DNA of 64,000 nt. Source: Alphaproteobacteria bacterium (GTDB lineage Bacteria; Pseudomonadota; Alphaproteobacteria; Rs-D84). The stretch spans positions 9,831 through 73,830 of the forward strand of contig SUUQ01000007.1 in the NCBI GenBank assembly GCA_015062445.1. The letters are read 5' to 3'. The position numbers and the translations under genes are program-made. Below are positions 14,488 to 29,954 of this stretch, piece by piece; positions within the stretch are counted from its first letter, which is position 1; every line of letters begins with the position of its first letter. A model generated the notes under the pieces. It was not told where the DNA came from. It saw nothing but the letters and a program-made list of their open reading frames with translations, and ran no database searches.

Positions 14488-14511
14488 AAAAGGTGCCATT
14501 TGGCACCTTTT
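14488..14511. terminator. Bidirectional intrinsic terminator
   Basis: aaaaggtgcc-attt-ggcacctttt between convergent genes. Confidence 0.75.
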
Positions 14512-14893
14512 ACTTTTGGGTATATGACCCTGTGAGTTCAAAGCCTGATTTTAGGACCTTGAGAAAGAAATGCTTTCGATTAGAACTGCTTGGAACAAGA
14601 TGAAGTCTGATGCGGTGGCCAGGCCCAACATTTAATTTTTGTAACTCTTCTACTGCATTATAAAATGATTTAACTGTGCCAAGATTAATGATGCATTCGA
14701 CAGACATATAGGCAGGAATAGTAACGGCAGTTTCCAGACCAGATTCTTTATGAATTGAATACAGCGAAATTGTGCTTTCATTGCGATTTGTCTCGATACG
14801 TAATTTATTCAACTTGGTGTGCATCCAAAACTTTTTGACCTTTGTTATTTCTTCTAAAAAGTCTTGCGCTTCAAAGACGATAAATGGTGGCAT
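14510..14893 (-). CDS. Hypothetical protein (127 aa)
   Basis: Open frame 9 nt downstream of the ARH gene on the same strand; no recognised motif. Confidence 0.5.
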   Translation of the reverse strand: MPPFIVFEAQDFLEEITKVKKFWMHTKLNKLRIETNRNESTISLYSIHKESGLETAVTIPAYMSVECIINLGTVKSFYNAVEELQKLNVGPGHRIRLHLVPSSSNRKHFFLKVLKSGFELTGSYTQK

Positions 14894-14902
14894 GGTATAC
14901 CG

Positions 14903-15685
14903 TTATTTTGTTTCACACAGTTCAATAATCTCCAACAAATCGTCGGGGATATAGGTTTTGGCCTGGTCGATTAGTTCGGGTGGAATGCCGTAATAGGCCT
15001 CGGCGACGGAGCCTGTGATTGCGGCGATTGTATCGCTGTCGCCACCTATTGATATCGCATTGCGGATTGCGTCTTCAAAGTCCGTTGACTCAAAAAAACA
15101 TTGCAGGGCGGGCGGTACCGTTCCCTGGCACGAAGAATCCCAGTCATAGTATTCCTGTAAATCCGCCAAGCAGTCGCATGTCGGGTAATAGTTGTTGCGG
15201 ATGTATTCGGCTATGTCGTCTTTGCTGTGGCCGTTGCGTGCCATGAATATAGCAACGGCAACCGCCTCGGCGCCCTTGATGCCTTCGATATGGTTGTGTG
15301 TCGGGGATGTGACCAGGTATGACAGGCGTTTGACTTCTGCGATATTTTCGCCAAACCACCCGGCGGCAGATACTCGCATCGCCGCCCCATTGCCCCAGCT
15401 GTTATACGGACCCATAGTCGGGTCATTCAGCCATTCCAAAAACATACCGCCATATCCTTTGTTCGGATATGCCTTGCCAACAACTCGCATAGTGTCGGCT
15501 GTGATTTGGCTCAGGTCGCCACCTTGCTCATGCCATTGTTTGATTGCGCTGGCCACTGCTATGGACATACAAGAATCATCCGTGATATAGCAACGGTCGG
15601 TCATAAAAGGGAAGTTCTTGGACCGGATATTTGCAAATTCATAAACAGACCCGGCAATGTCGCCAATAATCGCACCAAACAGCAT
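14903..15685 (-). CDS. ADP-ribosylglycohydrolase (DraG/ARH family)
   Basis: GAIIGDIAGS, TDDS, SWGNGAAMR, CQGTVP and GGDSDTIAAITG motifs; SD AAGGAG. Confidence 0.92.
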   Translation of the reverse strand: MLFGAIIGDIAGSVYEFANIRSKNFPFMTDRCYITDDSCMSIAVASAIKQWHEQGGDLSQITADTMRVVGKAYPNKGYGGMFLEWLNDPTMGPYNSWGNGAAMRVSAAGWFGENIAEVKRLSYLVTSPTHNHIEGIKGAEAVAVAIFMARNGHSKDDIAEYIRNNYYPTCDCLADLQEYYDWDSSCQGTVPPALQCFFESTDFEDAIRNAISIGGDSDTIAAITGSVAEAYYGIPPELIDQAKTYIPDDLLEIIELCETK

Positions 15686-15917: not shown

Positions 15918-15993
15918 TGGTGCCGGTTGTCGGACTTGAACCAACGACCTACTGATTACAAATCAGCCGCTCTACCAGCTGAGCTAAACCGGC
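15918..15993 (-). tRNA. tRNA-Thr (TGT)
   Basis: Reverse complement GCCGGTTTAGCTCAGCTGGTAGAGCGGCTGATT-TGT-AATCAGTAGGTCGTTGGTTCAAGTCCGACAACCGGCACCA; 76 nt with encoded CCA. Confidence 0.97.
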
Positions 15994-16081
15994 AATGCCA
16001 ACCAATTATACATATCTGGAACGCAAACGCAAGCAAAAAATCATAAAACATGTGTCCAGGGGTAAAAATCATTTATGGTAT

Positions 16082-16110
16082 TTGATTTTTTTCATTTTTT
16101 GGTGTAGTAT
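16082..16110 (+). promoter_or_regulatory. Sigma70 promoter of RNA leader A
   Basis: TTGATT, 17 bp, TG-TAGTAT (extended -10). Confidence 0.7.
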
Positions 16111-16116
16111 ATAGTC

Positions 16117-16295
16117 TGACATAGCGGTTGCTGTGTTGGGCGTCGAAACCCGTTTAATGCGTTGTGTCCGCGGGGACAAAAAACACCTTCAACTGATTGG
16201 TTGGAGGGTGGTGATATACAAAAATAAGCCCGCTATTTTCAACGCATTATAGTTTCGAACCTCCAACCACCTGCCTGTGTACGGTGGTTTTTTGT
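16117..16295 (+). ncRNA. Structured attenuator/antisense leader, copy A (C4/CI-like layout)
   Basis: Two 5' hairpins; tcgaaac (16143-49) pairs with gtttcga (16252-58); taatgcgttg (16155-64) pairs with caacgcatta (16240-49); ggttggagg (16199-207) pairs with cctccaacc (16260-68); terminator aaccacc/ggtggtt plus U-tract. Confidence 0.7.
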
Positions 16296-16297
16296 TT

Positions 16298-16393
16298 GTG
16301 TACATACAAGCATACCCGGGTGTGGCAATAACAGTGTTGGGTCTGTCGTTTGTTGTATGGCCAATTGTTATTGTTTTAACAAAGAATTCATGA
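16298..16393 (+). CDS. Possible 31-aa single-transmembrane peptide
   Basis: GTG start; MYIQAYPGVAITVLGLSFVVWPIVIVLTKNS; possible SD GGTGG lies in the terminator 3' arm. Below ORF-track cutoff. Confidence 0.35.
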   Translation: MYIQAYPGVAITVLGLSFVVWPIVIVLTKNS

Positions 16394-16426
16394 TACGATA
16401 ACCTGTGTCAAAAAAAAGAAAACAAG

Positions 16427-17482
16427 ATGACAAAAGAAAAAGAAGTTGCAAAAAAACAAAACTATATGACATTTGAAGAAATGGCCAAGGTTTTTTTGAA
16501 AGAAAAAATTAACATAAGACAGGGAGAGCTTGGTAGTCTATATCACGATCTGGTTTACAAAAGAGAGTTACCAAGAAGTTATTGGTCCTATACATATTGT
16601 TCCGAGGAGGAGAAAATGCTTCTTGACCAGGTGTTTGGTGTCCATCAAGATTTGCAAAATCCAGATGCAAAAAAATTCTTGGAAAATCTTCAAATTATTA
16701 TTGGTTCCAGATTTGCTGTAAATCCATTTCGGGCAGAGATAGATTATATTATAGTCAAACCAGAACAAATGGCGGATGTGTTCTTGAAACTGGCTGATAC
16801 CGAGATAAAGGATGAAAAGATTAAGTATGATGCCCTGAAATATTTAACAGGCAGTAATGTTTTGAAAAAAAGAAAAGACCTGTGGGCAAAAATATTAAAA
16901 AATCCAAATTCGGTAACATACGATTATAAATTGGCAATAATGGCACTTGATAAAGCCGATCCAGATTTGAAAAAGATATATTCCGCAATGGAGAAAAAGG
17001 TAAAAGTAACAATTGTCAATGAAAGTGAAAACAGATTGCCAGATTTTGATAAATTGAACTATACCAAGGTGCACTTGCATGATGCGGCAAAGTATATTGA
17101 TGCAGATCTGGGGGCGCAGGTAGAGGCAATGTATTTTGGCAATGACGGTGCGGAATTGGAAGAATTCCTGGCCCAGGTTGAAAAGTCGTCCAGTCTGAAA
17201 ATTACAGAACTGACTGCCCAGGTTGAAGGGCTGAATAAGCAGCTGAAGACCACAGAAAACCAGCTGAAACAGACGGCGGGCGAACTGGAAAAGGCGCAGG
17301 CCGAAAATCAAAAGCTGGCCAATGCCAACGAAAAACAGGCAGATAAATTAAACATGGAAAAAAAGTACGTCAAGCAACTGTTGAATGCGGCCGAAGAGTT
17401 GCGTATCGGTATTGGCAGTCGTGGTATCAGAAATATGCGTAAAGTTATGAACTATGTCCAGCAGGCACAGCAAACTAGATAA
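16427..17482 (+). CDS. Hypothetical protein with C-terminal coiled coil
   Basis: 351-aa ORF; heptad-rich last third; followed by a terminator. Confidence 0.75.
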   Translation: MTKEKEVAKKQNYMTFEEMAKVFLKEKINIRQGELGSLYHDLVYKRELPRSYWSYTYCSEEEKMLLDQVFGVHQDLQNPDAKKFLENLQIIIGSRFAVNPFRAEIDYIIVKPEQMADVFLKLADTEIKDEKIKYDALKYLTGSNVLKKRKDLWAKILKNPNSVTYDYKLAIMALDKADPDLKKIYSAMEKKVKVTIVNESENRLPDFDKLNYTKVHLHDAAKYIDADLGAQVEAMYFGNDGAELEEFLAQVEKSSSLKITELTAQVEGLNKQLKTTENQLKQTAGELEKAQAENQKLANANEKQADKLNMEKKYVKQLLNAAEELRIGIGSRGIRNMRKVMNYVQQAQQTR

Positions 17483-17486
17483 GTCA

Positions 17487-17510
17487 AAAACGCACCAAAC
17501 GGTGCGTTTT
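17487..17510. terminator. Intrinsic terminator
   Basis: aaaacgcacc-aaac-ggtgcgtttt followed by more Ts. Confidence 0.75.
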
Positions 17511-17589
17511 TTGTTTGTTTTTGCTGGGGCTGGTTTGAAATTTGATATAAATCCCTTGCCTTTGGAAATATTTGGGGCAAAATAGGGGC

Positions 17590-18849
17590 ATGACAAAAGT
17601 AAAATTACCAGAATTGTTGGCGCCGGCGGGTACGCTGGATGCCTTTCAAACCGCCATTTTATATGGTGCAGATGCAATTTATGCGGGGCTGCCGGGGTTT
17701 TCTATGCGGGCCCGTGCGAAAATAGATGTTGATGGGGTAAAGCAGGGCATAGAACTGGCCCATGCCGCCGGCAAGAAAGTCTATTTGGCATTTAACCTGT
17801 TTGCGCACGATCACGAATATGCCAACATGCCCCGTGTGGCCGAGGTGATTAAATATCTGGCCCCCGATGCACTGATTGTGTCTGACCCAGGTATCGTTAT
17901 GTGGGTACGTGAAAACTTTCCAGATATGCCGATACACATTTCGACACAGGCGAACATTTGTTCGGCCAAGACGGTAAAGTTCTGGCAAAATGCGGGGGCA
18001 AAACTGTGTGTCCTTGCGCGCGAGGTTTCGCACGCCGAATTCAAAAACATCAGAACAGAATGTCCCGATATTGGTCTGGAGATATTTGTTCACGGTGCAA
18101 TGTGCATGTCGTATTCGGGGCGATGCCTGCTGTCGAATTTCATAACAGGCCGTCCGGCAAATCGTGGTGCATGCGCGCAACTGTGCCGTTGGAAATACGA
18201 TGTAATTCTGCGTGAACGTGAATCAGGGCTGGAAATGCCAGTGACGGAAGACGAACGTGGTGCCTATATCATGAATTCGCGTGACTTGTGCCTGATGCCA
18301 CGATTGGCGGATGTGATATCGGCAAATCCCGACAGTCTGAAAATCGAAGGTCGTAATCGTTCTGAATACTATGTTGGGTCTGTTGTTCATGCGTACCGCT
18401 GTGCGATGGATGCGTATGCGGCGAATCCGGAAAATTTTGACCCTGCACCCTTTATGGATTGTTTGAATCGGTTGGAAAGCCGTGGGTATACAACTGCGTT
18501 CTTTGATGGGCCACTGGGGCCCAGTGCACATAACTATGAAACCACACGCAGTACATCTGACTGGCATGCGGCAGGTGTGATAACGGCGACAGATGATGAA
18601 AATATAACGTTCGAGTTACGTAATGAAACGCGGGCAGGGGATGAAATAACATTTATTTTACCAGGGACGATGGATTCTGTGACGGTAAAATTGCCCAAAT
18701 TAATAAATGCGAAAAGTGGCGAAACGGTTGAAAAACTGGCCGCCGGTATGGGGAACAGTATTTTAATTCCACGCAAATGGCTGGGGGATACACACAGGGA
18801 AAAATTTGTTCCCTATGTTTTGGCATACAAGCCCAAAAAACGTATATAA
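17590..18849 (+). CDS. trhP: Peptidase U32 family protein (tRNA 5-hydroxyuridine synthesis, TrhP/YegQ-like)
   Basis: PELLAPAG, EIFVHGAMCMSYSGRCLLS, NRGACAQLCRW and DSLKIEGR motifs. Confidence 0.85.
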   Translation: MTKVKLPELLAPAGTLDAFQTAILYGADAIYAGLPGFSMRARAKIDVDGVKQGIELAHAAGKKVYLAFNLFAHDHEYANMPRVAEVIKYLAPDALIVSDPGIVMWVRENFPDMPIHISTQANICSAKTVKFWQNAGAKLCVLAREVSHAEFKNIRTECPDIGLEIFVHGAMCMSYSGRCLLSNFITGRPANRGACAQLCRWKYDVILRERESGLEMPVTEDERGAYIMNSRDLCLMPRLADVISANPDSLKIEGRNRSEYYVGSVVHAYRCAMDAYAANPENFDPAPFMDCLNRLESRGYTTAFFDGPLGPSAHNYETTRSTSDWHAAGVITATDDENITFELRNETRAGDEITFILPGTMDSVTVKLPKLINAKSGETVEKLAAGMGNSILIPRKWLGDTHREKFVPYVLAYKPKKRI

Positions 18850-18918
18850 CCATATCCCCGCAGTTGCGGGGTTTTGTTTGCCCTTTTGTGATGATTGTGA
18901 TATAATTACACAACAGGG

Positions 18919-19872
18919 ATGCCAGAGATGAAAAATAGATTTTGCTTACTTATTGTTTTTAGTGTGTTTTTACCTCACTCTCCCGCAGCTGCAAATGTCT
19001 TGCCACTGAATGATGCACTGCGTGCCACATATACCGCATGCGTTGGCATTGATGATGAATTAGCCGACCTGAAAACAATGGCCGGTATAAATACCGCAAT
19101 TACATCTGTTGGAACGGCGACCGGTGTTGGTGCAACTGTGACGGGGTTGGTCAAGGCCGACAAAGACAAGCAAATCGAAATAAAACTGGAAAAACTGCGC
19201 GAAATAGAACAAAAAAATCCAGGCCTACAATCCACAGATGCTGAATGGGATAATTTTGAATCCGGCCTGAAAACAGAACTGGCCAATGCAAAAAAAGAGG
19301 TTGAAAAATATCAGGCAGAAATTGAAAAACTGAATCAGCAATCAAAAAATTTGGGCAATTGGCGTACTGGCCTGATGGCTGGTGCAACCGCAACCAATGC
19401 GGCTGGTGCAATTATTGCCGGCACGAATAAAGTAGATGCCGACCTGCAAACCCAAATAAACAATTGTATCGGCAGTGTCAAAACACTGCAAAATTCTATG
19501 ATGCAGGCACGTATAAATGGCGAAGATGTGTCCGAGGCAGAAACAATCGCATCCGCCTGTGGCGAATACGAATATGTCGATGTGTCCAAGATAAATAATC
19601 GTGCCAAAGGTGCTTTTGTATCATCCACCGTTGGTGCGGCGACCGGGTTGGCCGGAACAATTACATCCGCCACAGCCAATTCAAACAAAATACGCGGTGC
19701 CCAGGGTGATGCGGCACAACAGAAAGAAAAAAATCTGAATACTGCATCAAATGTGTTGGCGGGTGCAACAACTGTGGCTTCGGCAACGGCAACTGTATTC
19801 AACGCAACACAGATATCCGCAATAAAAAAAGTGGCCGCAGTCGCCGAAAAATGTACGGGGGTATTGAAATGA
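18919..19872 (+). CDS. Secreted Ala/Thr/Gly-rich helical protein with coiled coil
   Basis: Signal peptide; four small-residue hydrophobic segments; ATGA overlap with the next gene. Confidence 0.7.
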   Translation: MPEMKNRFCLLIVFSVFLPHSPAAANVLPLNDALRATYTACVGIDDELADLKTMAGINTAITSVGTATGVGATVTGLVKADKDKQIEIKLEKLREIEQKNPGLQSTDAEWDNFESGLKTELANAKKEVEKYQAEIEKLNQQSKNLGNWRTGLMAGATATNAAGAIIAGTNKVDADLQTQINNCIGSVKTLQNSMMQARINGEDVSEAETIASACGEYEYVDVSKINNRAKGAFVSSTVGAATGLAGTITSATANSNKIRGAQGDAAQQKEKNLNTASNVLAGATTVASATATVFNATQISAIKKVAAVAEKCTGVLK

Positions 19873-22800
19873 AGAAATCTCTGATTGCATTTTTGTGTAC
19901 ATTTATTGCGTTACCTGCGGTGGCTGATAATCATATCAAATTCAAGGCATCCGCAATCGAAGATACGATAAATACAATGGTGCCTGAAACACATCGCGCG
20001 TCCGCAGCAGACGAATATCAAAAACAGATGGATTCAACCACCGGTAAAATATCTGTTCTGGGTATTTACAAGGTTTGTGCGGCCGCCGGGTTCGATATAA
20101 ATAATACAAATGGATATAACGGTTGTCGCCTGTTTATAAATACAATCGCAGAAAAATCTGGTTTTGGCTCTGGCAGCGCAAACCAACAAAATTGCAGAAC
20201 CAAATTCAATGGCATTTGGACTGTGACCACTGATGGCACAGAACAATGTGTCGGCAAAGATGGCCATAAATTGGTGTACAGTGCATCGTGCCATGGTGGT
20301 GATGGAAAATGTATACGTGATTTTGCATCCCTGCAGACCCAGGTACCCACCGCCAAAGAATTTATTTATGCATATGGGAAAAAACACGAAATCGCATTTA
20401 CGTGCTCTAATGAAAAAGTAGACATTAAAAAAATTGGCGACGACTACATAAAATGCAGTGCGGGTGGCGTGGCATATGAATTTCAATTTGACGATTTGAA
20501 TCAGGACCCGGGGCAAACCGCGGTTGAATCTGAAAATACGGCCCTGTGTGAAATGTTTGGTGGTAAAATTGTAAAACATCCGGACAGCAGTATTGAAAAA
20601 CAATGGCAATCGTGCGAAGTATCAAGGGAAATTTGCAATGGCCCACTACATAATTTGGCAATAAAAATCGGTCACAATGTTATGTACCAGGGATACTGCC
20701 GCCTGTCACGCACAGTAAAAGAAACATCGGTCGTTGGTCTAAAAACATTACCGGGTGTGGACAGTCGTGTGTTTTATAACACCGGCGCCCAAATGCGTGC
20801 CGGCATGGCCAAGGAACAAACCGAAGAATATTTGCGCACAAAATTCCCAAATGAAACATATATAAACTGTGACCCAAATCCAAAAATATTGAATGAGGGC
20901 TTTGGAGTTGACCAGGACTATGTCATGACCTGTACCGTTGGCAGTAAACAGGTTGATTTTATATTCCACGACCTGACCGAGGGGAATGATGGACGTGCCG
21001 CAACCGGCATGGATGCAATGCAGTGTATAATCAGTGGTGGTACATTCAAGGGCGAATCCTGCCGTGGTCCAACCCAAGAGGAATGCGATGCCTTGGATGC
21101 GGCATTGCGTGCCAAGGGCTCATCTGAGGGTGCAGAGTGGGATGACGATGTTCGTGCATGTATTATGGGCAACGCAATGAAGACCTATAAACGCGATGTT
21201 GCAACGGGATACATTGTTGGTGCTGTTGTCATTGTTGGTGGTGCCATAGTAGCCATAGGCACTGGTGGCGCAGCAGTACCAATTATCGTTAGTGGAGCCG
21301 AAATGCTGGTAACAGATCTTGCAATCACTTACGCCATTGATGCAAACCATAGACGGTTGAGCAAACAAGCCGCTAGTAGATATATTGACTTTGTAGCAGA
21401 TGCATCTGAATGTAAGGACGAGCCATGTGCATTAAAAGTATTAAAGAAACATTATGCAACATTATCAGGAGTTATGAATGATTTAAACAAAGGCGACCAA
21501 GCTGTTGTTGATTATGTAATGGATGAACTTTTAGGTTTGATAAAAACAGAATATGTCGCTTGCGGTAAAAATGATAAAGGACAGATTGTCGTTGCCACAG
21601 CAGCAGAATGTGCGATGAAGAAATCAACATTACGAGCAATAGACTATATAGACAAGGTATCAGAACCGGTGCTTATTATAGCAAGCGTTGCATATAACCC
21701 AGGTTACGTAACCGCCAGATTTACAAAACTAAAAAACCTTAGCAAACTTGCAAAAGTTGATGATGTTATGGATGTAGCGCATATGTCAACTACAGATAGA
21801 AAGTTTTTTGAGGCATACGAAAAGTATGGTAAACGTAGCCAGACTCCTGAAGAATTTAAAGCCATGTTTGGTGGAGATTATGCTAAGTTAGAAGAAACAA
21901 TAAAAAGAGAGGGTTGGATTGCACTTGATGAAATGAGTTCGATATCACAAAAAAGTATCGACAAATTACAAGAAGAATACAATCAAATCAATCGTCAAAT
22001 AGACGATATGTTTAGTCCTGGTAGCTATAATGAAGCCACTGGTACATTTACAGATCCTAACGCTCAGAAACGTTTTGAGGAATTAGTACAAAAACGACAC
22101 GATGTTCATAATCGGTTCATGAACGAAAGAACTGCTTTTGAGACCCCTGGACAATTTGAAAATTATTCAATACCACAAGAGCAAAAAATGGCTCTTTTAA
22201 ATGTGAGGTGGGAGGCTGAAACCAAATTGCAGGAAGCAAAAAAGAACGTTCTTGATAATAACCCTGTATGGAAAGAAATCGAGGAGATTGTGGATGCAGA
22301 ATATAAGAGCGGTAAAATACCTGCTGAGAAATATATTACACGTTGGGATGAAGTTGCTAAAGCTCGCGGAACATCCAGAGAATCTTACATGGATGCTGTC
22401 GAGTCCGCGCAAAGTACTGTAAGGAAAGAATACAACACAAAAATTATACCACAAGTAGCAAAGCTGGATAATAAAGATTTTGTTGTTGCAGAACGTGTTC
22501 AATTATATTCTGAAATTGTAGACAAAGACCCAGAATTACGTCGTATGGCAACAAGATTCGATAAATTGACAGATGAAGAAAAGCTCGCCTTTGGTCAAAA
22601 AATAATGAACAAGAGTGGCGATTATACACAGGCTAGTAAATATCAACTAAAAAGCACATCACAGTGGGATGCTGAGCATGTTGGGGAGAGTCGTGATTTT
22701 ATAGGATTACATTCCAGTAATGAAAAAACGATATATGTAGATTTGAAAGAAGAAGGCAGTTCATTACCAGAATTTATGAATACGCTTGCTCATGAAGACG

Positions 22801-23093
22801 GACACAGAATTGATAGAACTAGCGGGAATATGGGAATGTTAGGACGAGAACAGGCTAGTCTTAGTCATACTACATATTCAAATAAATGGAATGAGGGATA
22901 TAAGTTCACATTAGATGAACAAAGTTCTTACGCTATTGGTGATGCTGTTGAACAAGATTTCAACCGATTGCAAGACTACCGTTTTACAACAGCTCATAAA
23001 TTCGGCAAAAGTGATGCAAATTATATCGATAATATCGCAGCAGAGGCTGCTGCTGTAATGGCAGTAGGCATAGGAGTAGCGGAATTAGAATAA
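19869..23093 (+). CDS. Large secreted protein: Cys-rich N-half, hydrophobic hairpin, C-terminal HExxH metallopeptidase-like domain
   Basis: MKKSLIAF signal peptide; IVGAVVIVGGAIVAIGTGGAAVPIIV; LAHEDGH near the C-terminus. Confidence 0.75.
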   Translation: MKKSLIAFLCTFIALPAVADNHIKFKASAIEDTINTMVPETHRASAADEYQKQMDSTTGKISVLGIYKVCAAAGFDINNTNGYNGCRLFINTIAEKSGFGSGSANQQNCRTKFNGIWTVTTDGTEQCVGKDGHKLVYSASCHGGDGKCIRDFASLQTQVPTAKEFIYAYGKKHEIAFTCSNEKVDIKKIGDDYIKCSAGGVAYEFQFDDLNQDPGQTAVESENTALCEMFGGKIVKHPDSSIEKQWQSCEVSREICNGPLHNLAIKIGHNVMYQGYCRLSRTVKETSVVGLKTLPGVDSRVFYNTGAQMRAGMAKEQTEEYLRTKFPNETYINCDPNPKILNEGFGVDQDYVMTCTVGSKQVDFIFHDLTEGNDGRAATGMDAMQCIISGGTFKGESCRGPTQEECDALDAALRAKGSSEGAEWDDDVRACIMGNAMKTYKRDVATGYIVGAVVIVGGAIVAIGTGGAAVPIIVSGAEMLVTDLAITYAIDANHRRLSKQAASRYIDFVADASECKDEPCALKVLKKHYATLSGVMNDLNKGDQAVVDYVMDELLGLIKTEYVACGKNDKGQIVVATAAECAMKKSTLRAIDYIDKVSEPVLIIASVAYNPGYVTARFTKLKNLSKLAKVDDVMDVAHMSTTDRKFFEAYEKYGKRSQTPEEFKAMFGGDYAKLEETIKREGWIALDEMSSISQKSIDKLQEEYNQINRQIDDMFSPGSYNEATGTFTDPNAQKRFEELVQKRHDVHNRFMNERTAFETPGQFENYSIPQEQKMALLNVRWEAETKLQEAKKNVLDNNPVWKEIEEIVDAEYKSGKIPAEKYITRWDEVAKARGTSRESYMDAVESAQSTVRKEYNTKIIPQVAKLDNKDFVVAERVQLYSEIVDKDPELRRMATRFDKLTDEEKLAFGQKIMNKSGDYTQASKYQLKSTSQWDAEHVGESRDFIGLHSSNEKTIYVDLKEEGSSLPEFMNTLAHEDGHRIDRTSGNMGMLGREQASLSHTTYSNKWNEGYKFTLDEQSSYAIGDAVEQDFNRLQDYRFTTAHKFGKSDANYIDNIAAEAAAVMAVGIGVAELE

Positions 23094-23106
23094 CAATAAC
23101 AACTAA

Positions 23107-23143
23107 AAAGGACGATAAGGACCCAGGGTCCTTATCGTCCTTT
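23107..23143. repeat. Perfect 37-bp palindrome (18-bp arms, 1-nt centre)
   Basis: aaaggacgataaggaccc-a-gggtccttatcgtccttt. Confidence 0.95.
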
Positions 23144-23156
23144 ACTAACCAAAATT

Positions 23157-23182
23157 AAAACCGCCCGAATGGGCGGGGTTTT
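23157..23182. terminator. Bidirectional terminator
   Basis: aaaaccgccc-gaat-gggcggggtttt between convergent genes. Confidence 0.7.
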
Positions 23183-23717
23183 ATTTTTCACGTTCGCGTT
23201 CGTGTTGGCGTTCGCGTTCCAGTGTGCGGCTGTTAAATATTTCACGAAACTGTGGTGCTGGTGATGGGCTGACCGGTGTCTGTGGTGTGCCGGGGGCCCA
23301 GTCCATAATTTTTCGGCGAATTATGTCCATGCCATTTTGAATCTTGGTATTGGCATCTTCGGTCCAGGCGGCACGCTTTTCGGGTGGGCAATTGATATAT
23401 TCGTTCGTGTGTGCAACCGAAGTCATTTTGATTTTCATTTTGCGAATATGTTCAAATGTTGCATACCGAACATAGTTCGTTGCCATATTATTTACAGGTA
23501 TTGAAAATATCGCATCCCGCAGTGCATCCATTGCCGCCAACCATGCCGCCCCCAGTGTTCCGCCATCCAGCCATTTCAGCAGTGACAGCCCCGAATACAG
23601 AACGCCTATGGCGTTGTCTATGATTTGCTTGTCTGCGTCTGTCAGTTGGCACGCATCAAATTCTGCGGCCGATTGTCCCGACAGCATTGCCAACGTTTTT
23701 TCAAATTCTATGTCCAT
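23181..23717 (-). CDS. Hypothetical protein with charged C-terminal tail (ERERQHEREREK)
   Basis: 178-aa ORF with SD-like AAGGA. Confidence 0.7.
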   Translation of the reverse strand: MDIEFEKTLAMLSGQSAAEFDACQLTDADKQIIDNAIGVLYSGLSLLKWLDGGTLGAAWLAAMDALRDAIFSIPVNNMATNYVRYATFEHIRKMKIKMTSVAHTNEYINCPPEKRAAWTEDANTKIQNGMDIIRRKIMDWAPGTPQTPVSPSPAPQFREIFNSRTLERERQHEREREK

Positions 23718-23741
23718 TTTTTATATTTCCTTGGTTTATTA

Positions 23742-24752
23742 TTATGCCGCGTTTTGGAATTGCTGACCGATAATCCACATTTGCATACGTTTCTGCATTT
23801 TGATTTGCAGTTGTGCATGTTGTGCAATAACCTTTTGTTCTGCCTGTGCCAGGGCTGCTTTTTTCTGAGGTATTGACAGCGCAGATTTTTCTTTATCTGC
23901 GGTCATGACCGGAATTTCAGATTGCTTTTTTGTATCACGCAGTGTTGGAAATGCACCAGATTTTGCCTGTGGTTGCACAGCGGGCCGGGGTGTATATTGC
24001 ACATCCGGTTTTTGTTGAGTTGCCTGGGCCAGTTGTGCCTGCGCGACCAGATTTAATTGTGGCTGCGGCATTTGTTGCTGTTGCTGCTGTTTTTGCAGTG
24101 CGGCCATCTGTTCAGGTTGCACCATCTGTTGTGGCGATTTTTCTGGTATTGACAGTGCAGATTTTTCTTTATCTGCGGTCATGACCGGAATTTCAGATTG
24201 CTTTTTTGTATCACGCAGTGTTGGAAACGCACCAGATTTTGCCTGTGGCTGCACAGCGGGCTGGGCTGCATGTTGTGTATCTGTCTTCTGTTGTTGTTGC
24301 ATGGCAACCATTTGTTCGGCCCGGTCATTATACTGTGCCAGGATAATATTAATGGTGTCCATCGCAGTGCGAATCATATTTGTGCCATGTTCACGAATCT
24401 GTTTTGCTTCGTTTTGATTTGGATTAATCGCTTTGTCACGATTTTTGTGTGTCATGATTACTTGGGACCAGTATGGTTTATGTGCGGCAAATACATTTTT
24501 CAGATACTGTGCCGCCGGGTTTTTATCATTTTTTGTTTTGATAAATGAATCGCATTGCCCCAGTGCGGTTTGCCATGCCCGCCCCAGCGAGTGTTTATTC
24601 GTCCAGTTAACCCATGTGAATCCTGTGAACAGTTTCATATATGCATCGGCCAGCATTTTTCTGTCATCCTTGCTGACACGTTTTTGTATTTCTGGGGTCA
24701 GTTTTATCATAAATTTTTGTTGTAAATCTGCGATGTTTGTTTGTGTTGTCAT
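23742..24752 (-). CDS. Hypothetical Gln-rich protein with internal 39-aa duplication
   Basis: 336-aa ORF; PAVQPQAKSGAFPTLRDTKKQSEIPVMTADKEKSALSIP occurs twice. Confidence 0.75.
   Translation of the reverse strand: MTTQTNIADLQQKFMIKLTPEIQKRVSKDDRKMLADAYMKLFTGFTWVNWTNKHSLGRAWQTALGQCDSFIKTKNDKNPAAQYLKNVFAAHKPYWSQVIMTHKNRDKAINPNQNEAKQIREHGTNMIRTAMDTINIILAQYNDRAEQMVAMQQQQKTDTQHAAQPAVQPQAKSGAFPTLRDTKKQSEIPVMTADKEKSALSIPEKSPQQMVQPEQMAALQKQQQQQQMPQPQLNLVAQAQLAQATQQKPDVQYTPRPAVQPQAKSGAFPTLRDTKKQSEIPVMTADKEKSALSIPQKKAALAQAEQKVIAQHAQLQIKMQKRMQMWIIGQQFQNAA
23869..24261. repeat. 117-bp intragenic direct repeat (23869-23985 and 24145-24261)
   Basis: Near-identical copies 276 bp apart. Confidence 0.9.
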
Positions 24753-25002
24753 GATTGAACCTCTTGATTAAAATACTGGGGTCCATCCCACAGCAATTTT
24801 ATATAGGTCGCCTGTCATATATTTTCAAGGGGCTGTTGTCAAGAAAATTTATTTTTTGACATATGTCCTATTCTGGTGCAAGAATACAGATGTTCATATC
24901 GCAACAACATACTGTTGCCAACAATGGGCGGTATGGGTATGGACCCGCATCTTGCCAATAATGGGGGTGTGGCATTTCATCGAAAACCAAGGAGTTAAAC
25001 AG

Positions 25003-25995
25003 ATGAAAAAAACATTAAGTGCAGCAGTTGCATTGTCGATTTTCGCGGCACCTGCGATTGCGGCCAACCTGGAAAATCCATTGTACATGCCAAAACAGGG
25101 TACTGGATATTCCAAAACATCTGCGGGTGTAATGTACAAAATCGCAGATGATTCAGATGCACATGTTACCAAGAATCATGATGGCGCAACAGAATTTCCA
25201 ATCTGGCGTGTTCACGAAGAATTGGGATACGGTATTTTGGACAACCTGGAAGCGTACGCGAAATTCGGTTATACCCATGACGGCGACATTGATCGCAAGG
25301 GTATGCACCTGGGCCGTGCCGGTTTGAAATACCGTGCCATTGACACAGACACAGGTTGGGTGTGGGACCTGTATGCAGATGCCCAGTTGGGCGGAATCAG
25401 TGAAATGTCTGGTTCGTATACTGCAACCGGTTTCAATTATGATAATTATTCGAATGGTCGCTGGGGATTCCACGTTGGAACCCAGGTGGGCAAAGCATGG
25501 TCTAAATTCAGCATGGCTGGATTCGTAGAAGTTTTGCGTACATTCGGCAACGATAATAACAAAATTGATATTTCTCAATCACCATTGGCCGGTTTGTCGG
25601 CATTGGGGATGCCTATGGAAATTTCAGTCGATTTGAAATCAACGACCGAAGTTAATGTAGGTTTGAAAATGTTCTATCAGTTGGATGATCGTTGGTCATT
25701 CGGTGGTGGTCTGACATACAAACATCACGCAGACAATGGCGTAGAAGGTTTGGCAACAGATGTTCCGAATCACCCGATGATTGCTGGTACAGTTGCGACC
25801 CTGGAATCCCAGTTGGCCGATATGAACGATGGGTTTGACGAATACGTTGTTAATTTGACAGCGGCATATCAAATGACCGATATAACCCAGGTTGCGGTTT
25901 ACGGTGAATACACATTTGATACTGCACATGCCCAGTCTCAGAATGGTACCGATGTCAAGGCCGAATTGGGTGTTCGTTTGAACGTTCAGTTCTAG
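25003..25995 (+). CDS. Outer-membrane beta-barrel protein
   Basis: Signal peptide MKKTLSAAVALSIFAAPAIA; alternating beta-strands; terminal GVRLNVQF (BAM signal). Confidence 0.8.
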   Translation: MKKTLSAAVALSIFAAPAIAANLENPLYMPKQGTGYSKTSAGVMYKIADDSDAHVTKNHDGATEFPIWRVHEELGYGILDNLEAYAKFGYTHDGDIDRKGMHLGRAGLKYRAIDTDTGWVWDLYADAQLGGISEMSGSYTATGFNYDNYSNGRWGFHVGTQVGKAWSKFSMAGFVEVLRTFGNDNNKIDISQSPLAGLSALGMPMEISVDLKSTTEVNVGLKMFYQLDDRWSFGGGLTYKHHADNGVEGLATDVPNHPMIAGTVATLESQLADMNDGFDEYVVNLTAAYQMTDITQVAVYGEYTFDTAHAQSQNGTDVKAELGVRLNVQF

Positions 25996-26134
25996 GATCG
26001 GACAATAAAGCAAAATAAAAAATAAACATATATTGGACAAAGTCCCGCCCCACATGGGCGGGATTTTTATATCTGATTACTTGCACAGTTGTTCAGAAAA
26101 TGATATAATAAACCAAAAGAAATATGGGAAAGGC

Positions 26135-27226
26135 ATGAAAAAGACAAGCATTTCTGCCGTGTTGACTGGTATACTGTTGGGGCTGCCGATGGCGGCTGGT
26201 GCTGCGTATCCAACGTATCCGACATACCAGACGGCCGCAATGAACGGGCAGCAGATGTATATGCCCGCCGTAAATAATCCTGCTGTTATGGGGAATGGGG
26301 GTGTGTCTTATGGCAATGTTGCTGCGGCCCAGCCGACACGTATAACTGGTGCGTTGCCACGTGTGGGCTCGTCCCAGACAACTGCCGGGCGCCAGTATTA
26401 TCAACCCGCCGACTATGACAGACTGGCGGACAGTGGTCTGTACGTTGGGCTGTCTGTTGCATATACTGCTTCATTGATGGGAGCGATGTCGTCCGACTAT
26501 ACTGGCGAAGAAGATGCATATACTGTGCCTGGTGCATTTCAAAGTGCTGATTTTGAATCAGACACCATGATACCGCTGCAGGTTTCTGTTGGTGCGGCAT
26601 TAAACAATGATGTTCGTGTTGATTTTTCATATTTGCGTTATTCTGGGTTATCATATCCCAAAACGGTTCAGACTGCTGATGGTGCCGGTGGCTTTGTCGA
26701 GGCCCAGGTTGATGGCGGTGCGATTACGACAAACACGGCGATGTTAAATGTGTACTATAATATCGACACGTTCACGGGGTATTTGGCGGGTGGTGCGTTG
26801 CGTCCATACATTGGGGCGGGTGTTGGTATATCGTTAAACACGATTTCAGACTATGTTGTATACGATAACACATTTTATTCTGTGATGGATCCTGCGTATG
26901 CGCCTGCGGGTAAATTGACGGGTATATCTGACATTTATGCATACCACAATGGTGGCACGTCCGAGCAATTGGCATTCATGCTGGAAGGTGGTCTGACCAC
27001 AGAATTGCAGGGCGGAATTAAACTGGATTTCTTTATTCGCTATGCCAATTTGGGCAAGGTTAAAAATTCAGGCAGCATCGTTTTAAGCCAGATTGAATGG
27101 CTGGGCGATGGCGCCGGGGGCGAGTACGAGGCACCATACGACAGTGTATTCCACTATACCAACTGGTACGAGAGTGGCCGTCTGGGTATGGTTGATGCAG
27201 GTATTCGATTAAGATTACAGTTTTAA
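26135..27226 (+). CDS. Outer-membrane beta-barrel protein (opacity/OmpA-like barrel) with low-complexity N-region
   Basis: Signal peptide; VRVDFSY, RPYIGAGVG motifs; terminal AGIRLRLQF. Confidence 0.8.
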   Translation: MKKTSISAVLTGILLGLPMAAGAAYPTYPTYQTAAMNGQQMYMPAVNNPAVMGNGGVSYGNVAAAQPTRITGALPRVGSSQTTAGRQYYQPADYDRLADSGLYVGLSVAYTASLMGAMSSDYTGEEDAYTVPGAFQSADFESDTMIPLQVSVGAALNNDVRVDFSYLRYSGLSYPKTVQTADGAGGFVEAQVDGGAITTNTAMLNVYYNIDTFTGYLAGGALRPYIGAGVGISLNTISDYVVYDNTFYSVMDPAYAPAGKLTGISDIYAYHNGGTSEQLAFMLEGGLTTELQGGIKLDFFIRYANLGKVKNSGSIVLSQIEWLGDGAGGEYEAPYDSVFHYTNWYESGRLGMVDAGIRLRLQF

Positions 27227-27289
27227 CGTTATAGAACACCGGGCATTTGCCCGGTTGTGCTGATTTATATCTTGGGGATGAAAAAAGGG

Positions 27290-28930
27290 ATGAGAAACAC
27301 AAAATCAATATTGTTTTATTCGTTATTGGCGACATTGGTTCCATGTGTTGCGATGGCGGGTATCCGTGTTGGCAATCTGTCACGTTCGAATGCGGCGGGC
27401 TATCAACAGGTGAACCAGGCACGTTTTCAGGCGGACCAGGCCACCCAGGCGGCTGCAGAAACTGCGGCGGCTGCTGCGGTTCCCCAGGGGGGTGAAAATG
27501 GTGCATTGGTGGCCAGTTCACAGACGGAATCCGGTCAGATGTCACGTTGTTCAATGATTTATCCCAACGGTGAATTTTCCTGGTCCCGTCCCACGGTCGG
27601 GCATGGTATCGGCGGTGCGTCGACCTGTACTGCAGTTGTTGAAATGCGTGCGATTGGTGCGGGCGAAAACGGGGCGGATTTGGTTGTTGCCCGTGCGAAT
27701 TTGGCGGCTGGCGACAGTGTTCGTTGCAACATATCAGACTTTTCAGAAATGACCTGGCTGCCTGCTGCGGGTGAAATTGAATTTCCTGCGGATAACGAAC
27801 CGACCATGGATGATGTTATAACCACTATGAACCGTGAACAGAAACAAAATGCCGGTCTAAAGATTGCGGCGGGGGCCGTTATTGGTGGTCTGGGCGGCAA
27901 CATGGCGGGCAAGAATGAACCTGGCAAAGATGGTTTGCTGGGCGGTGGCAAGGCCAAAACCAACAGTACGATTATTGGCGCCCTGGGGGGTGCGGCTTTG
28001 ATGGCGGGCAATGCCTACACGGGCAAGGTTGCCGGTGATGTGATTTTATCGACTGGTGTGAATGCGGCGGCGGGTGCAGTTATGGGCAACATTGTTGCCA
28101 GTGGTGATTCTGTAATGCGGATTGAACCGTGCACGGTTGATGAGAAGGATACAACATGCCTGTGGGGCTTTGTTGAAAAGACAAAAGCATTGGAAAATGG
28201 CGAAGTCGCATATGTATCTGCCACAAATATAAATAATTTTCTTGTTTGTAAACGTGATGAATCAGATGAGGATCGTGAAATTTGTTCTGCGGCAAATCTG
28301 ACCCGTGCAGTTGTCGAAGAATATGAAAACGAAAAAAGCAAATCAGATAAACAACCCATGGAATTGTCTGATATGCTGCAAGAGAGCTTTGGCAAAGTTA
28401 CCAAGCGTTATTGCTATTCCGACAACAAAATGCAGGAAAGCAGCACCTGTGACAAAGATATGTATATCAAACTGAAATCTGCTGTCTATGTGACAAATCG
28501 TATTGCGGCGATGCTGGTTGGTGTTGCGGACAAAGGCAGTGGCTGGAAACGTGCTGATTGGTCTGATTTGAAACAGCGCTATTCTGGTGCACAGATTGTT
28601 GGTCGTGCTGGTTCTGGCACTGCGACAAATTTGCCGACCAAGCCCGACATAAATGATTTTCGTCCTGCATACCTTGATGCATCAGATGGCGGTGTTGTTG
28701 ACATTTCGAACAAGGCCCGTCTAAAAGGCACCTTGACCGGTGCCGGTGTTGGTGCGGGGATGGGTGCGTTTGTTGGATACCAGGGTGCCCAAAGTGACAT
28801 TGAAGAACGTTGGGTAACGGCGGTGCGTGAATACAAAGACAGTCTGGGCAAGGTTTATTGTGCAACAGGGACCCGATTCTTGTCCCAGTATAACGACACG
28901 ATAATAATTCCTGCGATGCCAGCAGAATAA
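27290..28930 (+). CDS. Secreted protein with glycine-zipper segments
   Basis: Signal peptide; AAGAVIGGLGG, IIGALGGAALMAG, GAGVGAGMGAFVG; many Cys. Confidence 0.7.
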   Translation: MRNTKSILFYSLLATLVPCVAMAGIRVGNLSRSNAAGYQQVNQARFQADQATQAAAETAAAAAVPQGGENGALVASSQTESGQMSRCSMIYPNGEFSWSRPTVGHGIGGASTCTAVVEMRAIGAGENGADLVVARANLAAGDSVRCNISDFSEMTWLPAAGEIEFPADNEPTMDDVITTMNREQKQNAGLKIAAGAVIGGLGGNMAGKNEPGKDGLLGGGKAKTNSTIIGALGGAALMAGNAYTGKVAGDVILSTGVNAAAGAVMGNIVASGDSVMRIEPCTVDEKDTTCLWGFVEKTKALENGEVAYVSATNINNFLVCKRDESDEDREICSAANLTRAVVEEYENEKSKSDKQPMELSDMLQESFGKVTKRYCYSDNKMQESSTCDKDMYIKLKSAVYVTNRIAAMLVGVADKGSGWKRADWSDLKQRYSGAQIVGRAGSGTATNLPTKPDINDFRPAYLDASDGGVVDISNKARLKGTLTGAGVGAGMGAFVGYQGAQSDIEERWVTAVREYKDSLGKVYCATGTRFLSQYNDTIIIPAMPAE

Positions 28931-28954
28931 AATGTCCCCCGATTGGGGGATTTT

Positions 28955-29173
28955 TTAATTTCGCCGTTTACACAAAATCATTGTTAACCCATTTGTCATA
29001 ATGCGTTCAACAATCTTTTCTGGCATCAGCATTTTACCATTTTCAATTCGTATCAAATCACGATGAGATACCCCCAGCATGTTTGCGCATTGACATCTTT
29101 TCAGGTTCAACGTATTGCGTGCATGTCGCAGGTAATGACCAAAGTATTTGGTGTCTACTAAAACAACTGCCAT
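28955..29173 (-). CDS. XRE/Cro-like helix-turn-helix protein, copy 1 (72 aa)
   Basis: FGHYLRHARNTLNLKRCQCANMLGVSHRDLIRIENGK; SD GGAGG. Confidence 0.85.
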   Translation of the reverse strand: MAVVLVDTKYFGHYLRHARNTLNLKRCQCANMLGVSHRDLIRIENGKMLMPEKIVERIMTNGLTMILCKRRN

Positions 29174-29194
29174 TTTTATCCTCCATGTTTTTTG

Positions 29195-29372
29195 ATTAAC
29201 AAAAAACCGCCAATGATAAACAAAAGCGGTTGGAGGTTAAAGACTATTCGAATAGATAGTGCTGTTTATTTATATATATCACAGCCCCCCAACCAATGTT
29301 GGAGATAATGTTTATGTCATCCCTGACAATTCGAACGGGTCTTTACACCCCACACCGTTTTTTTCAGTGCCA
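29195..29372 (-). ncRNA. Structured attenuator/antisense leader, copy B
   Basis: On the minus strand taaagac pairs with gtcttta, ttcgaat with attcgaa, ggttggggg with cctccaacc; terminator aaccgc/gcggtt plus U-tract just before the HTH SD. Confidence 0.72.
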
Positions 29373-29679
29373 ACAAATTATACCTGATACTTTTCTTAGA
29401 TTCAAATAAATTATTCATTGCTGTATTTATTTTCAAAAAATCCCCCGATTGGGGGATTTTTTTATTTCGCCGTTTACATAAAATCATTGTTAACCCATTT
29501 GTCATAATGCGTTCAACAATCTTTTCCGGCATCAGCATTTTACCGTTTTCAATTCGTATCAAATCACGATGAGACACCCCCAGCATGTTTGCACATTGGC
29601 ATCTTTTCAGGTTCAAAGTATTGCGTGCATGTCGCAGGTAATGACCAAAGTATTTGGTGTCTACTAAAACAACTGCCAT
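29317..29679 (-). CDS. XRE/Cro-like HTH protein, copy 2; stop codon lost, 48-aa read-through extension
   Basis: First 72 aa identical to copy 1; TAA replaced by AAA. Confidence 0.8.
   Translation of the reverse strand: MAVVLVDTKYFGHYLRHARNTLNLKRCQCANMLGVSHRDLIRIENGKMLMPEKIVERIMTNGLTMILCKRRNKKIPQSGDFLKINTAMNNLFESKKSIRYNLLALKKTVWGVKTRSNCQG
29377..29405 (-). promoter_or_regulatory. Sigma70 promoter of leader B
   Basis: TTGAAT, 17 bp, TATAAT. Confidence 0.8.
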
Positions 29680-29699
29680 TTTTATCCTCCATGTTTTTT

Positions 29700-29866
29700 G
29701 ATTAACAAAAAACCGCCAATGATAAACAAAAGCGGTTGGAGGTTAAAGACTACAAGTAAGAGTAGTGTTGCTTATTCAACATATTCACAACCCTCCAACC
29801 ATCCTGGTCGGAGAAATTTATACTTACTTTCGGGTCTTTACACCCCACACCGTTTTTTCAGTGCCA
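29700..29866 (-). ncRNA. Structured attenuator/antisense leader, copy C
   Basis: On the minus strand taaagac pairs with gtcttta, aagtaag with cttactt, ggttggagg with cctccaacc; same terminator as copy B. Confidence 0.72.
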
Positions 29867-29870
29867 ACAA

Positions 29871-29899
29871 ATTATACCTGACACTTTTCTTAGATTCAA
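29871..29899 (-). promoter_or_regulatory. Sigma70 promoter of leader C
   Basis: TTGAAT, 17 bp, TATAAT. Confidence 0.8.
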
Positions 29900-29954
29900 A
29901 TAAATTATTCATCGCTGTATTTATTTTCAAAAAATCCCCCAGACGGGGGATTTT

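Follow-up and report, generated by a model that had tools for sequence, protein, structure and literature searches.

We analyzed a stretch of 64,000 nucleotides (nt) from an Alphaproteobacteria bacterium of the lineage Rs-D84 (GenBank assembly GCA_015062445.1, contig SUUQ01000007.1, positions 9,831 to 73,830 of the forward strand), which is referred to below as the window and to which all coordinates apply unless another sequence is named. The window contains three copies of a leader RNA, and these are members of a large, previously undescribed family of ~170-185-nt leader RNAs of uncultured gut Alphaproteobacteria. We consider it probable that each leader acts in cis as a two-state device, in which a terminator fold is set against a read-through fold and the choice between them determines whether polymerase enters the gene behind. 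With more than 130 examples, the family would represent an orphan switch, i.e., a bistable leader that is backed by covariation and is present in multiple copies per genome throughout a clade of gut and rumen bacteria that have not been cultured. The family would also link sRNA-Xcc1 and the Bartonella regulatory transcripts (Brt) to one testable architecture, consisting of an anti-antiterminator, an antiterminator and a terminator together with a long clamp helix, and it allows the copy-specific complementary segments of the leaders to be explained without any "address".

A first-pass annotation of the window had described these three leaders and their complementary segments, and on reading the sequence we found every quoted segment in place. 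Copy 1, on the plus strand, extends from a first hairpin, H1, to the U-run of its terminator (16116-16299); it scores 169.8 bits against R1, the covariance model of the family introduced below, and its minimum free energy (MFE) fold lies at -68.5 kcal/mol (z -4.35). The 5′ strand of a long helix, P1, comprises a GGG motif followed by the segments A and B (16138-16164), and the GGG can alternatively pair with a CCC to give a local hairpin, H2. A (tcgaaac, 16143-16149) is complementary to A′ (gtttcga, 16252-16258), and B (taatgcgttg, 16155-16164) to B′ (caacgcatta, 16240-16249). Between B and B′ stand C″ (ccttcaac, 16186-16193) and, after a loop, C (tggttggaggg, 16198-16208), which form an anti-antiterminator hairpin (16186-16208) according to the MFE fold and to the triple covariation described below. 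B′, A′ and C′ (16260-16268) make up one block (16240-16268), and C′ overlaps the 5′ arm of a predicted intrinsic terminator (aaccacc/ggtggtt and a T-run, 16265-16294). The domain from C to C′ (16198-16268) is predicted to form a three-way junction like that of sRNA-Xcc1, based upon RNAalifold, pair counts and an alignment to the Rfam model RF02221 (34.9 bits, model positions 1-87).

Copies 2 and 3 lie on the minus strand. The leader of copy 2 (29195-29372; R1 105.1 bits) carries A (taaagac, 29345-29339) with A′ (29244-29238), B (ttcgaat, 29335-29329) with B′ (29253-29247), C″ (ctccaac, 29304-29298), C (29295-29285) and C′ (29236-29228), and in its MFE fold the terminator arms are located at 29231-29226 and 29210-29205. 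The corresponding elements of copy 3 (29701-29867; R1 99.8 bits) are A (taaagac, 29840-29834) and A′ (29750-29744), B (aagtaag, 29829-29823) and B′ (29760-29754), C″ (ctccgacc, 29813-29806), C (29801-29791), C′ (29742-29734) and the terminator arms at 29737-29732 and 29716-29711. A promoter scan placed TTGAAT-17-TATAAT in front of both copy 2 (29377-29405) and copy 3 (29871-29899). The "clean sigma70 promoter" that had been ascribed to all three leaders is therefore true of two of them, because copy 1 has only a -10-like box (TAGTAT/TATATA, 16105-16113) and no -35 element at the level of the scan.

The three leaders stand out from the rest of the window. In a scan of all 64 kb, the pattern GGTTGGRGG-N(30-60)-CCTCCAACC was restricted to the three leader sites, with none expected in shuffled sequence, and the spacing from GGTTGG(A/G)GG to CCTCCAACC was 46-52 nt in the three copies. 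The folding energy of every copy was far below that of shuffled sequence (z -3.8 to -4.5), and all three adopt a common MFE fold that consists of H1, a long GGGY-A-B/B′-A′-ACCU helix, a multi-branch interior and the intrinsic terminator. Included in this fold is the segment C″, which had been missed by the first-pass annotation; it is a CTCCAAC-like upstream copy of C′, located just 5′ of C, with which it forms the local hairpin.

Based on these segments, we propose the following mechanism. In the OFF state (fold I), the 5′ GGGY-A-B strand would pair with B′-A′-ACCU in a helix of ~20 bp, and C (UGGUUGGAGGG) would be held in the local hairpin with C″ (CUCCAAC), which repeats its complement on the 5′ side. 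This would leave AACC, in the 3′ portion of C′, free to serve as the 5′ arm of the terminator. In the ON state (fold II), C would pair with C′ (CCUCCAACC) and close a three-way junction that contains two hairpins, P-a and P-b. This would remove the 5′ arm of the terminator, whilst H2 would form locally with A in its loop and B′ would sit in the loop of P-b. Termination would be the default, and a putative factor, either a protein or a small molecule, would stabilize the fold II junction or open the C″/C hairpin so that read-through occurs. The logic would be the same as that of factor-dependent antiterminators.

Support for the idea that the leaders form a family came from a search of one-genome-per-species contigs with the pattern TGGTTGGRGGG-N35-60-AACCTCCAACC. 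This returned at least 118 matches, nearly all of them in metagenome-assembled genomes (MAGs) of gut, rumen and termite-gut Alphaproteobacteria, often with several copies per genome and under host labels such as "Candidatus Enterousia" and "uncultured Rickettsiales/Alphaproteobacteria"; among the pattern matches listed, four were on viral contigs. We built R1 from 28 copy-1-like members. A covariance model and a scan of relatives had been proposed in the first-pass annotation, and the scan yielded 134 full-length relatives (110 + 24, 45-190 bits) in gut and rumen alphaproteobacterial MAGs, some of which lack the search pattern. Rfam 15 holds no family for the leader RNA, either at the gathering threshold or at E≤10, and a sub-threshold similarity to sRNA-Xcc1 was the only recurrent match. 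In 91 of 110 relatives, a near-consensus -10 hexamer ends 3-5 nt ahead of the start of the R1 model; 103 of 110 have a U-run at the 3′ end, and in most members an open reading frame (ORF) preceded by a Shine-Dalgarno sequence begins 40-55 nt past C′. We therefore conclude that these are autonomous leaders that run from promoter to terminator. Three family-bearing contigs (L017, L103, and L027) are recorded as Bacteroides fragilis or Muribaculaceae, and are probably mis-binned alphaproteobacterial sequence.

The pairing scheme of fold I is strongly conserved. In an alignment of 122 distinct relatives, 93.9% of 5671 cells were paired, versus 71% in shuffles and 36-49% when the partners were slid by 1-3 columns, and in 46 of the 52 pairs both partners were altered. 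Each of the ten pairs of the B helix and of the four pairs at the center of the A helix (AU, CG, GC, and UA in the latter) occurs as four to six pair types, so that the covariation of A/A′ and B/B′ among homologues that the first-pass annotation had called for was found; the complementarity is far beyond chance. When 110 members were folded without constraints, the MFE structure contained the A helix in 108, the B helix in 93, the C″/C hairpin in 107 and the terminator in 99.

Fold II is likewise marked by compensatory change. Column pair 41/55 of H2 (GGG..CCC around A) is GC in 56 members, GU in 26 and AU in 23, and column pair 318/339 of P-b (CUAU..AUAG around B′) is UA in 75 and AU in 16. 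Once C/C′ pairing was enforced, H2 and P-b appeared in ~68 of 110 predicted folds. C/C′ itself is 98% paired yet nearly invariant, because the search pattern had fixed both C and C′. C″, C, and C′ are altered together in six natural variants, seen in members that were found by the model only (L051, L108, L085, L018, and L072), for example to CUCCUGA / GUCAGGAGG / CCUCCUGAC and, in a second triple, to UCCUGACC / GGUCGGGAUG / CAUCCCGACC. These joint changes indicate that both alternative pairings of C are real. They also make it unlikely that the three segments are recognized by the ribosome (as an anti-Shine-Dalgarno interaction) or by a common small RNA (sRNA).

Fold I together with the terminator was 10.0 ± 5.1 kcal/mol below the best fold in which C/C′ was enforced, and this was so in 105 of 110 members; the default should therefore be termination. 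Both sets of helices are backed by covariation, the computed energies show fold I to be the more stable, and the genomic position of the RNA is that of a leader. The cis-switch logic of the first-pass annotation was borne out to the extent that the A/B-B′/A′ helix accompanies the terminator, C/C′ would prevent it, and covariation backs both states. Its further point, that pairing of A and B blocks C/C′, has to be amended: the cis-switch logic is largely sound, but the direct competitor of C/C′ is the C″/C hairpin together with the pairing of GGGY to the ACCU of C′, and not A/B alone. Mutual exclusivity is firm only for C″/C versus C/C′, GGGY-ACCU versus C/C′, H2 versus A/A′, and P-b versus B′/A′. 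The copy-specific A and B segments are, on this account, simply a drifting, compensated closing helix.

The genes that follow the leaders are closely spaced to them, with a Shine-Dalgarno sequence and no promoter of their own, so they depend on read-through. Among 125 downstream genes, 44 encode homologues of the 72-amino acid (aa) XRE-type helix-turn-helix (HTH) protein that is found behind copy 2. The N-terminus resembles a signal peptide or a membrane segment in 48 of the other 81 products, and 18 of the 81 are rich in cysteine. Pfam matches among the downstream genes include surface repeats and ABC exporters as well as a pilin and a methylase, and many of the genes are of unknown function.

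Several points weigh against the proposed two-state mechanism. The homologues were fished with exact C and C′ sequences and the alignment was fitted to a model of fold I. Termination and read-through are predicted here from folds and covariation, and the factor is putative. In principle, the A/B helix and C/C′ could coexist as a pseudoknot. In a divergent subfamily (L018 and L072), A, B, and the C triple are retained but the conserved loop of P-a is missing, and that loop may therefore not be the sensor. Finally, the downstream genes have no shared metabolic theme, which is unusual for a metabolite riboswitch, nor did we find among them the coherent functional association by which such riboswitches are recognized.

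The closest mechanistic precedents are the classical three-hairpin attenuators and the factor-dependent antiterminators, namely the trp type with its 1:2, 2:3, and 3:4 pairings, PyrR, LicT/RAT, and the T-box. The leaders resemble them in that C″, C, C′, and the 3′ arm of the terminator behave as regions 1 to 4, and in that the antiterminator is weaker than the terminator and needs help to form; they differ from them by an extra closing helix of 20 bp and two trap hairpins. There was no Rfam match to T-box or riboswitch models at the gathering threshold or at E≤10. Leader-peptide attenuation of the trp type was rejected on inspection of the sequences, since the region 5′ of C″ has neither a start codon nor a Shine-Dalgarno sequence that is conserved; some members do have an ATG in B, but others do not. 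Nearly every conserved nucleotide serves two alternative helices. The exceptions, and the only candidates for the invariant unpaired nucleotides of a riboswitch, are the P-a loop (GA(A)UAU..AAUAAG), which the divergent subfamily lacks, and an A-rich joiner. A mini-ORF in the P-a loop was considered and rejected, as some members have the center of the loop interrupted and replaced by an extra hairpin.

The sub-threshold similarity to sRNA-Xcc1 led us to compare the two RNAs. sRNA-Xcc1 is an 88-nt RNA of Xanthomonas campestris that was characterized by Northern blot and rapid amplification of cDNA ends (RACE) (PMC2996969). It is found upstream of symE on integron cassettes (bioRxiv 10.1101/2025.06.18.660453) and upstream of an ORF6N gene in an APSE phage; in Xylella there are five tandem copies in an island, and a copy beside isrK and C4 in a prophage (PMC12189769). 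Five of the ~19 elements that we scanned scored 33.0-39.5 bits against RF02221, so that none reached its gathering score of 53, and the others had no match at E≤1. The alignments span model positions 1-87 on the domain from C to C′, and the RNAalifold consensus gives the same three-way junction. Both RNAs have a GG-rich closing helix of 9 bp, two internal hairpins, an AUA-rich loop and a UUxGA joiner; in copy 1 the junction consists of the C/C′ closing helix, P-a with a conserved GAUAU..AAUAAG loop and P-b with B′ in its loop. They are also alike in lying directly upstream of a gene and in being multi-copy, sometimes in tandem arrays. As for the association of sRNA-Xcc1 with genes on mobile or accessory DNA, the leaders occupy a 5′ untranslated position and one relative is on a prophage-like contig. 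Unlike sRNA-Xcc1, the leaders possess an extra 5′ domain of ~85 nt (H1, H2/A, B, P2, and C″) and an overlapping intrinsic terminator. By these likenesses of sequence and predicted fold, the leaders can be regarded as relatives of the sRNA-Xcc1 domain in extended form, which would place sRNA-Xcc1 among its closest known relatives.

An Xcc1-like element is also present on plasmid pBGR3 (L132), at 25880-25967 on the minus strand; it scores 49.5 bits against RF02221, again sub-threshold, and lacks both the 5′ domain and the overlapping intrinsic terminator. A TATAAT stands right before its closing helix, a gene for a YdcK-type beta-solenoid protein lies 40 nt downstream, and the same plasmid bears a Brt copy. 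A BLAST search of plasmids with the Rfam consensus of sRNA-Xcc1 gave no match.

The second comparison is with Brt1-9, which are located upstream of the XRE-family trp genes of Bartonella (Tu et al., 2016, PMC5387305; reviewed in PMC8070961). The Brt RNAs are abundant whilst trp is poorly transcribed (PMC5387305), and Brt1, for which a role in trans was proposed, is among the four most abundant transcripts. The XRE gene trp1 is de-repressed when Brt1 is deprived of its 3′ stem-loop by deletion, and a Brt1 reporter responded to haem (PMC8070961). The 3′ stem-loop acts as an attenuator, and the RNA is abundant when the gene is silent. Brt RNAs and the leaders are alike in being ~200-nt, multi-copy alphaproteobacterial RNAs with their own promoter; each is followed after 10-25 nt (10-18 nt for Brt) by a small XRE HTH gene without one. 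This layout is seen at copies 2 and 3 of the window.

We located the Brt copy of pBGR3, which is just upstream of an XRE gene, by means of the oligonucleotides of the Brt paper. It is predicted to fold into a 5′ hairpin and a pairing of GGGAG-UAAAAG-CCC...AAUUCUAG with CUAGAAUU...CUUUUAACUCCC; an internal CCCGGAAUUCCGGG hairpin takes the position of C″/C, and a downstream CUCCCGGAA that of C′. In contrast to the leaders, its 3′ hairpin has no U-run and no overlap with C′. On its own strand, this copy scored -0.3 bits against R1 and had no nhmmer match; the sole R1 match at Brt was on the wrong strand and was discarded as an effect of helix symmetry. The HTH proteins associated with Brt and with the leaders have generic similarity only. 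As both R1 and the sequence profile are silent on the correct strand, homology with Brt is not shown, and what is shared is the layout. By analogy, the Brt experiments fit the proposed leader model, in which the family would work like the Brt attenuators.

Taken together, the two comparisons suggest a bolder scheme that we regard as possible, though doubtful as a whole. In it, the Xcc1-type junction would be the sensing part of a novel class of factor-dependent antiterminators. Gut Alphaproteobacteria with small genomes would have added to it a cis-antisense 5′ arm (A, B, and C″) by which it is kept OFF; copies of this locked unit would have come to form a regulon of XRE regulators and secreted proteins across the genus, and the ~80-nt junction would persist as a stable RNA after termination. 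If true, this would provide the first mechanism for sRNA-Xcc1, whose function has been unclear since 2010, and a tie to the Brt/Trp circuit of Bartonella.

Stable fragments also feature in an alternative that we judge to be rather unlikely, namely that the main product is a small RNA trimmed to the ~80-nt junction from C to C′, which acts in trans on other RNAs or titrates a protein, with control of the downstream gene being secondary or one half of a dual function. The size of sRNA-Xcc1 by Northern blot and RACE (PMC2996969) speaks for such a product, as do the high abundance of Brt1 and the trans role proposed for it. Further support came from a gut metatranscriptome run (X25), in which contigs of 95-100% identity match 29226-29304, i.e., the C to C′ domain of copy 2 including its copy-specific B′. 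Within that leader-HTH cassette, the contigs of X25 were confined to this domain, and none fell on the 5′ half of copy 2, the terminator hairpin or the HTH ORF. Across 8 kb, the other matches of the run were to tRNA-Ser, a 63-nt piece of glycyl-tRNA synthetase and generic tccccc...ggggga hairpins that are common to other organisms. These are short assembler contigs from a single run, and contigs are a poor measure of expression. Moreover, their ends coincide with the borders of sequence that is shared between paralogues, where assembly graphs break, so the ends of the RNA cannot be defined from them. The ~80-nt domain of copy 2 may thus be a stable processed RNA or an assembly artefact. For copy 1, the RNA runs contained only long contigs from relatives. 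The tight spacing of the leaders to Shine-Dalgarno sequences and ORFs without promoters also speaks against this rival, since it leaves the downstream genes dependent on read-through.

The two-state leader might, alternatively, be a kinetic or physical device that operates without any factor, the outcome depending on the speed of transcription, on pausing, on temperature or on general RNA chaperones. In that case, H2, P-b, and C″/C would serve as local co-transcriptional traps that time the formation of the long helix. This would accommodate the fact that dual pairing explains nearly all of the conserved nucleotides, and the divergent subfamily, which keeps the pairing scheme alone. We nevertheless consider it improbable: an advantage of 10 kcal/mol for the terminator fold, combined with the early formation of C″/C, leaves no obvious route to read-through in the absence of a factor, and the P-a loop, although it has no pairing partner, is strongly conserved. 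In addition, transcription of the Bartonella trp genes is unchanged by shifts in temperature and pH (PMC8070961).

The first-pass annotation had placed the leaders with the C4 and CI antisense RNAs of phages, each copy being an "orthogonal address" whose own 5′ RNA, through private A and B segments, silences only that copy in cis or in trans. There is a likeness to the C4 RNA of phages P1 and P7 and the CI RNA of phage P4, in that the choice between termination and expression falls to short segments of a single transcript that are complementary to one another. That one segment has complements on its 5′ and its 3′ side formally recalls seqA/seqB/seqC of P4. B is, moreover, nearly unique to each copy (99 distinct variants among 110 members, compared with 38 for A), fold II would present A in a hairpin loop and B′ in the loop of P-b, a geometry that suits fast pairing of the antisense type, and the Xylella copy of sRNA-Xcc1 adjoins isrK and C4 (PMC12189769).

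Kinship with C4 found no support, as neither the three copies nor 16 relatives matched C4 (RF01695), c4-2 or c4-a1b1, even at E≤10. The C4 RNA is processed to ~77 nt, and it is through two exposed loop segments (a′ and b′) that it pairs with sites preceding icd/ant in the immunity operon of the phage; changes of a few bases alter the specificity of immunity. The leaders, in contrast, have A/B and B′/A′ as one nested closing helix in cis; the stable fold engages both strands of this helix and so offers no free segment that could act in trans. Their cargo is of XRE HTH or unrelated genes, with no antirepressor, icd-type or lytic gene downstream, and in the window their setting is chromosomal and non-prophage. 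The addresses fared no better. A is common to copies 2 and 3 and is identical in 10 of 69 within-genome pairs of members, and non-cognate partners pair at 8.2 of 17 columns within genomes versus 8.3 between genomes (cognate partners, 14.3), so this comparison of cross-pairing gave no signal of selection for orthogonal addresses. Variable, compensated A and B sequences are, as far as the alignments indicate, what any structural closing helix shows. The tandem copies on contig L085 (2333-3020, minus strand), where three family members precede a single gene of 195 codons, include two, the first and second, that share both A and B. On this evidence, we regard an antisense address code as highly improbable.

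In the window, copy 1 is followed on the plus strand by a gene for a 351-aa coiled-coil protein with no Pfam family (16427-17482) and then by a U32/TrhP-like gene (17572-18849). On its other side, across a tRNA-Thr gene, it is adjoined by an ADP-ribosylglycohydrolase gene and a small gene (14510-15685). A tRNA gene and a copy-1-type leader in divergent orientation (15921-16299 in the window) are found again in other MAGs, on contig L014 (1100-1478) and on L032 and L083. In L014, the leader precedes a 70-aa instead of a 351-aa gene, so the cargo changes whilst leader and tRNA stay. The leaders had been placed outside any recognizable prophage, which is correct for the window copies in their chromosomal setting but not for one relative, on the prophage-like viral contig L129 (7735-9703). 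This contig encodes a terminase, a serine recombinase and a type I restriction subunit, and its leader is followed by two small genes and a gene for an ADP-ribosylglycohydrolase.

Copies 2 and 3 each stand in front of an HTH gene on the minus strand, with the U-run ending ~25 nt ahead of the ATG. The gene behind copy 2 (28955-29173) encodes the 72-aa XRE-type protein. That behind copy 3 (29317-29679) has lost its stop codon (TAA to AAA at 29463-29461), and the frame therefore runs on for 48 codons, through a bidirectional terminator and the promoter of copy 2, into leader 2, to give a protein of 120 aa. The two genes otherwise differ at seven positions, all of them synonymous. The same 120-aa gene was called on metagenome contigs L003 and L004, whereas there is just one cassette in L001 and L002. 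The two leader-HTH cassettes of the window, of ~500 bp, are flanked by three bidirectional terminator hairpins of almost identical sequence (tccccc-N4/5-ggggga; 28935-28950, 29441-29456, and 29935-29950), to which contigs of many other organisms align in RNA runs. Lastly, leaders 2 and 3 contain on the minus strand a promoter-like match, TTAACC-16-TATCAT (9 of 12 positions; 29213-29240 and 29719-29746), with its -10 element in the loop of the terminator. A match of this quality is at chance level for the region; it could drive a basal, leader-independent transcription of the HTH genes.

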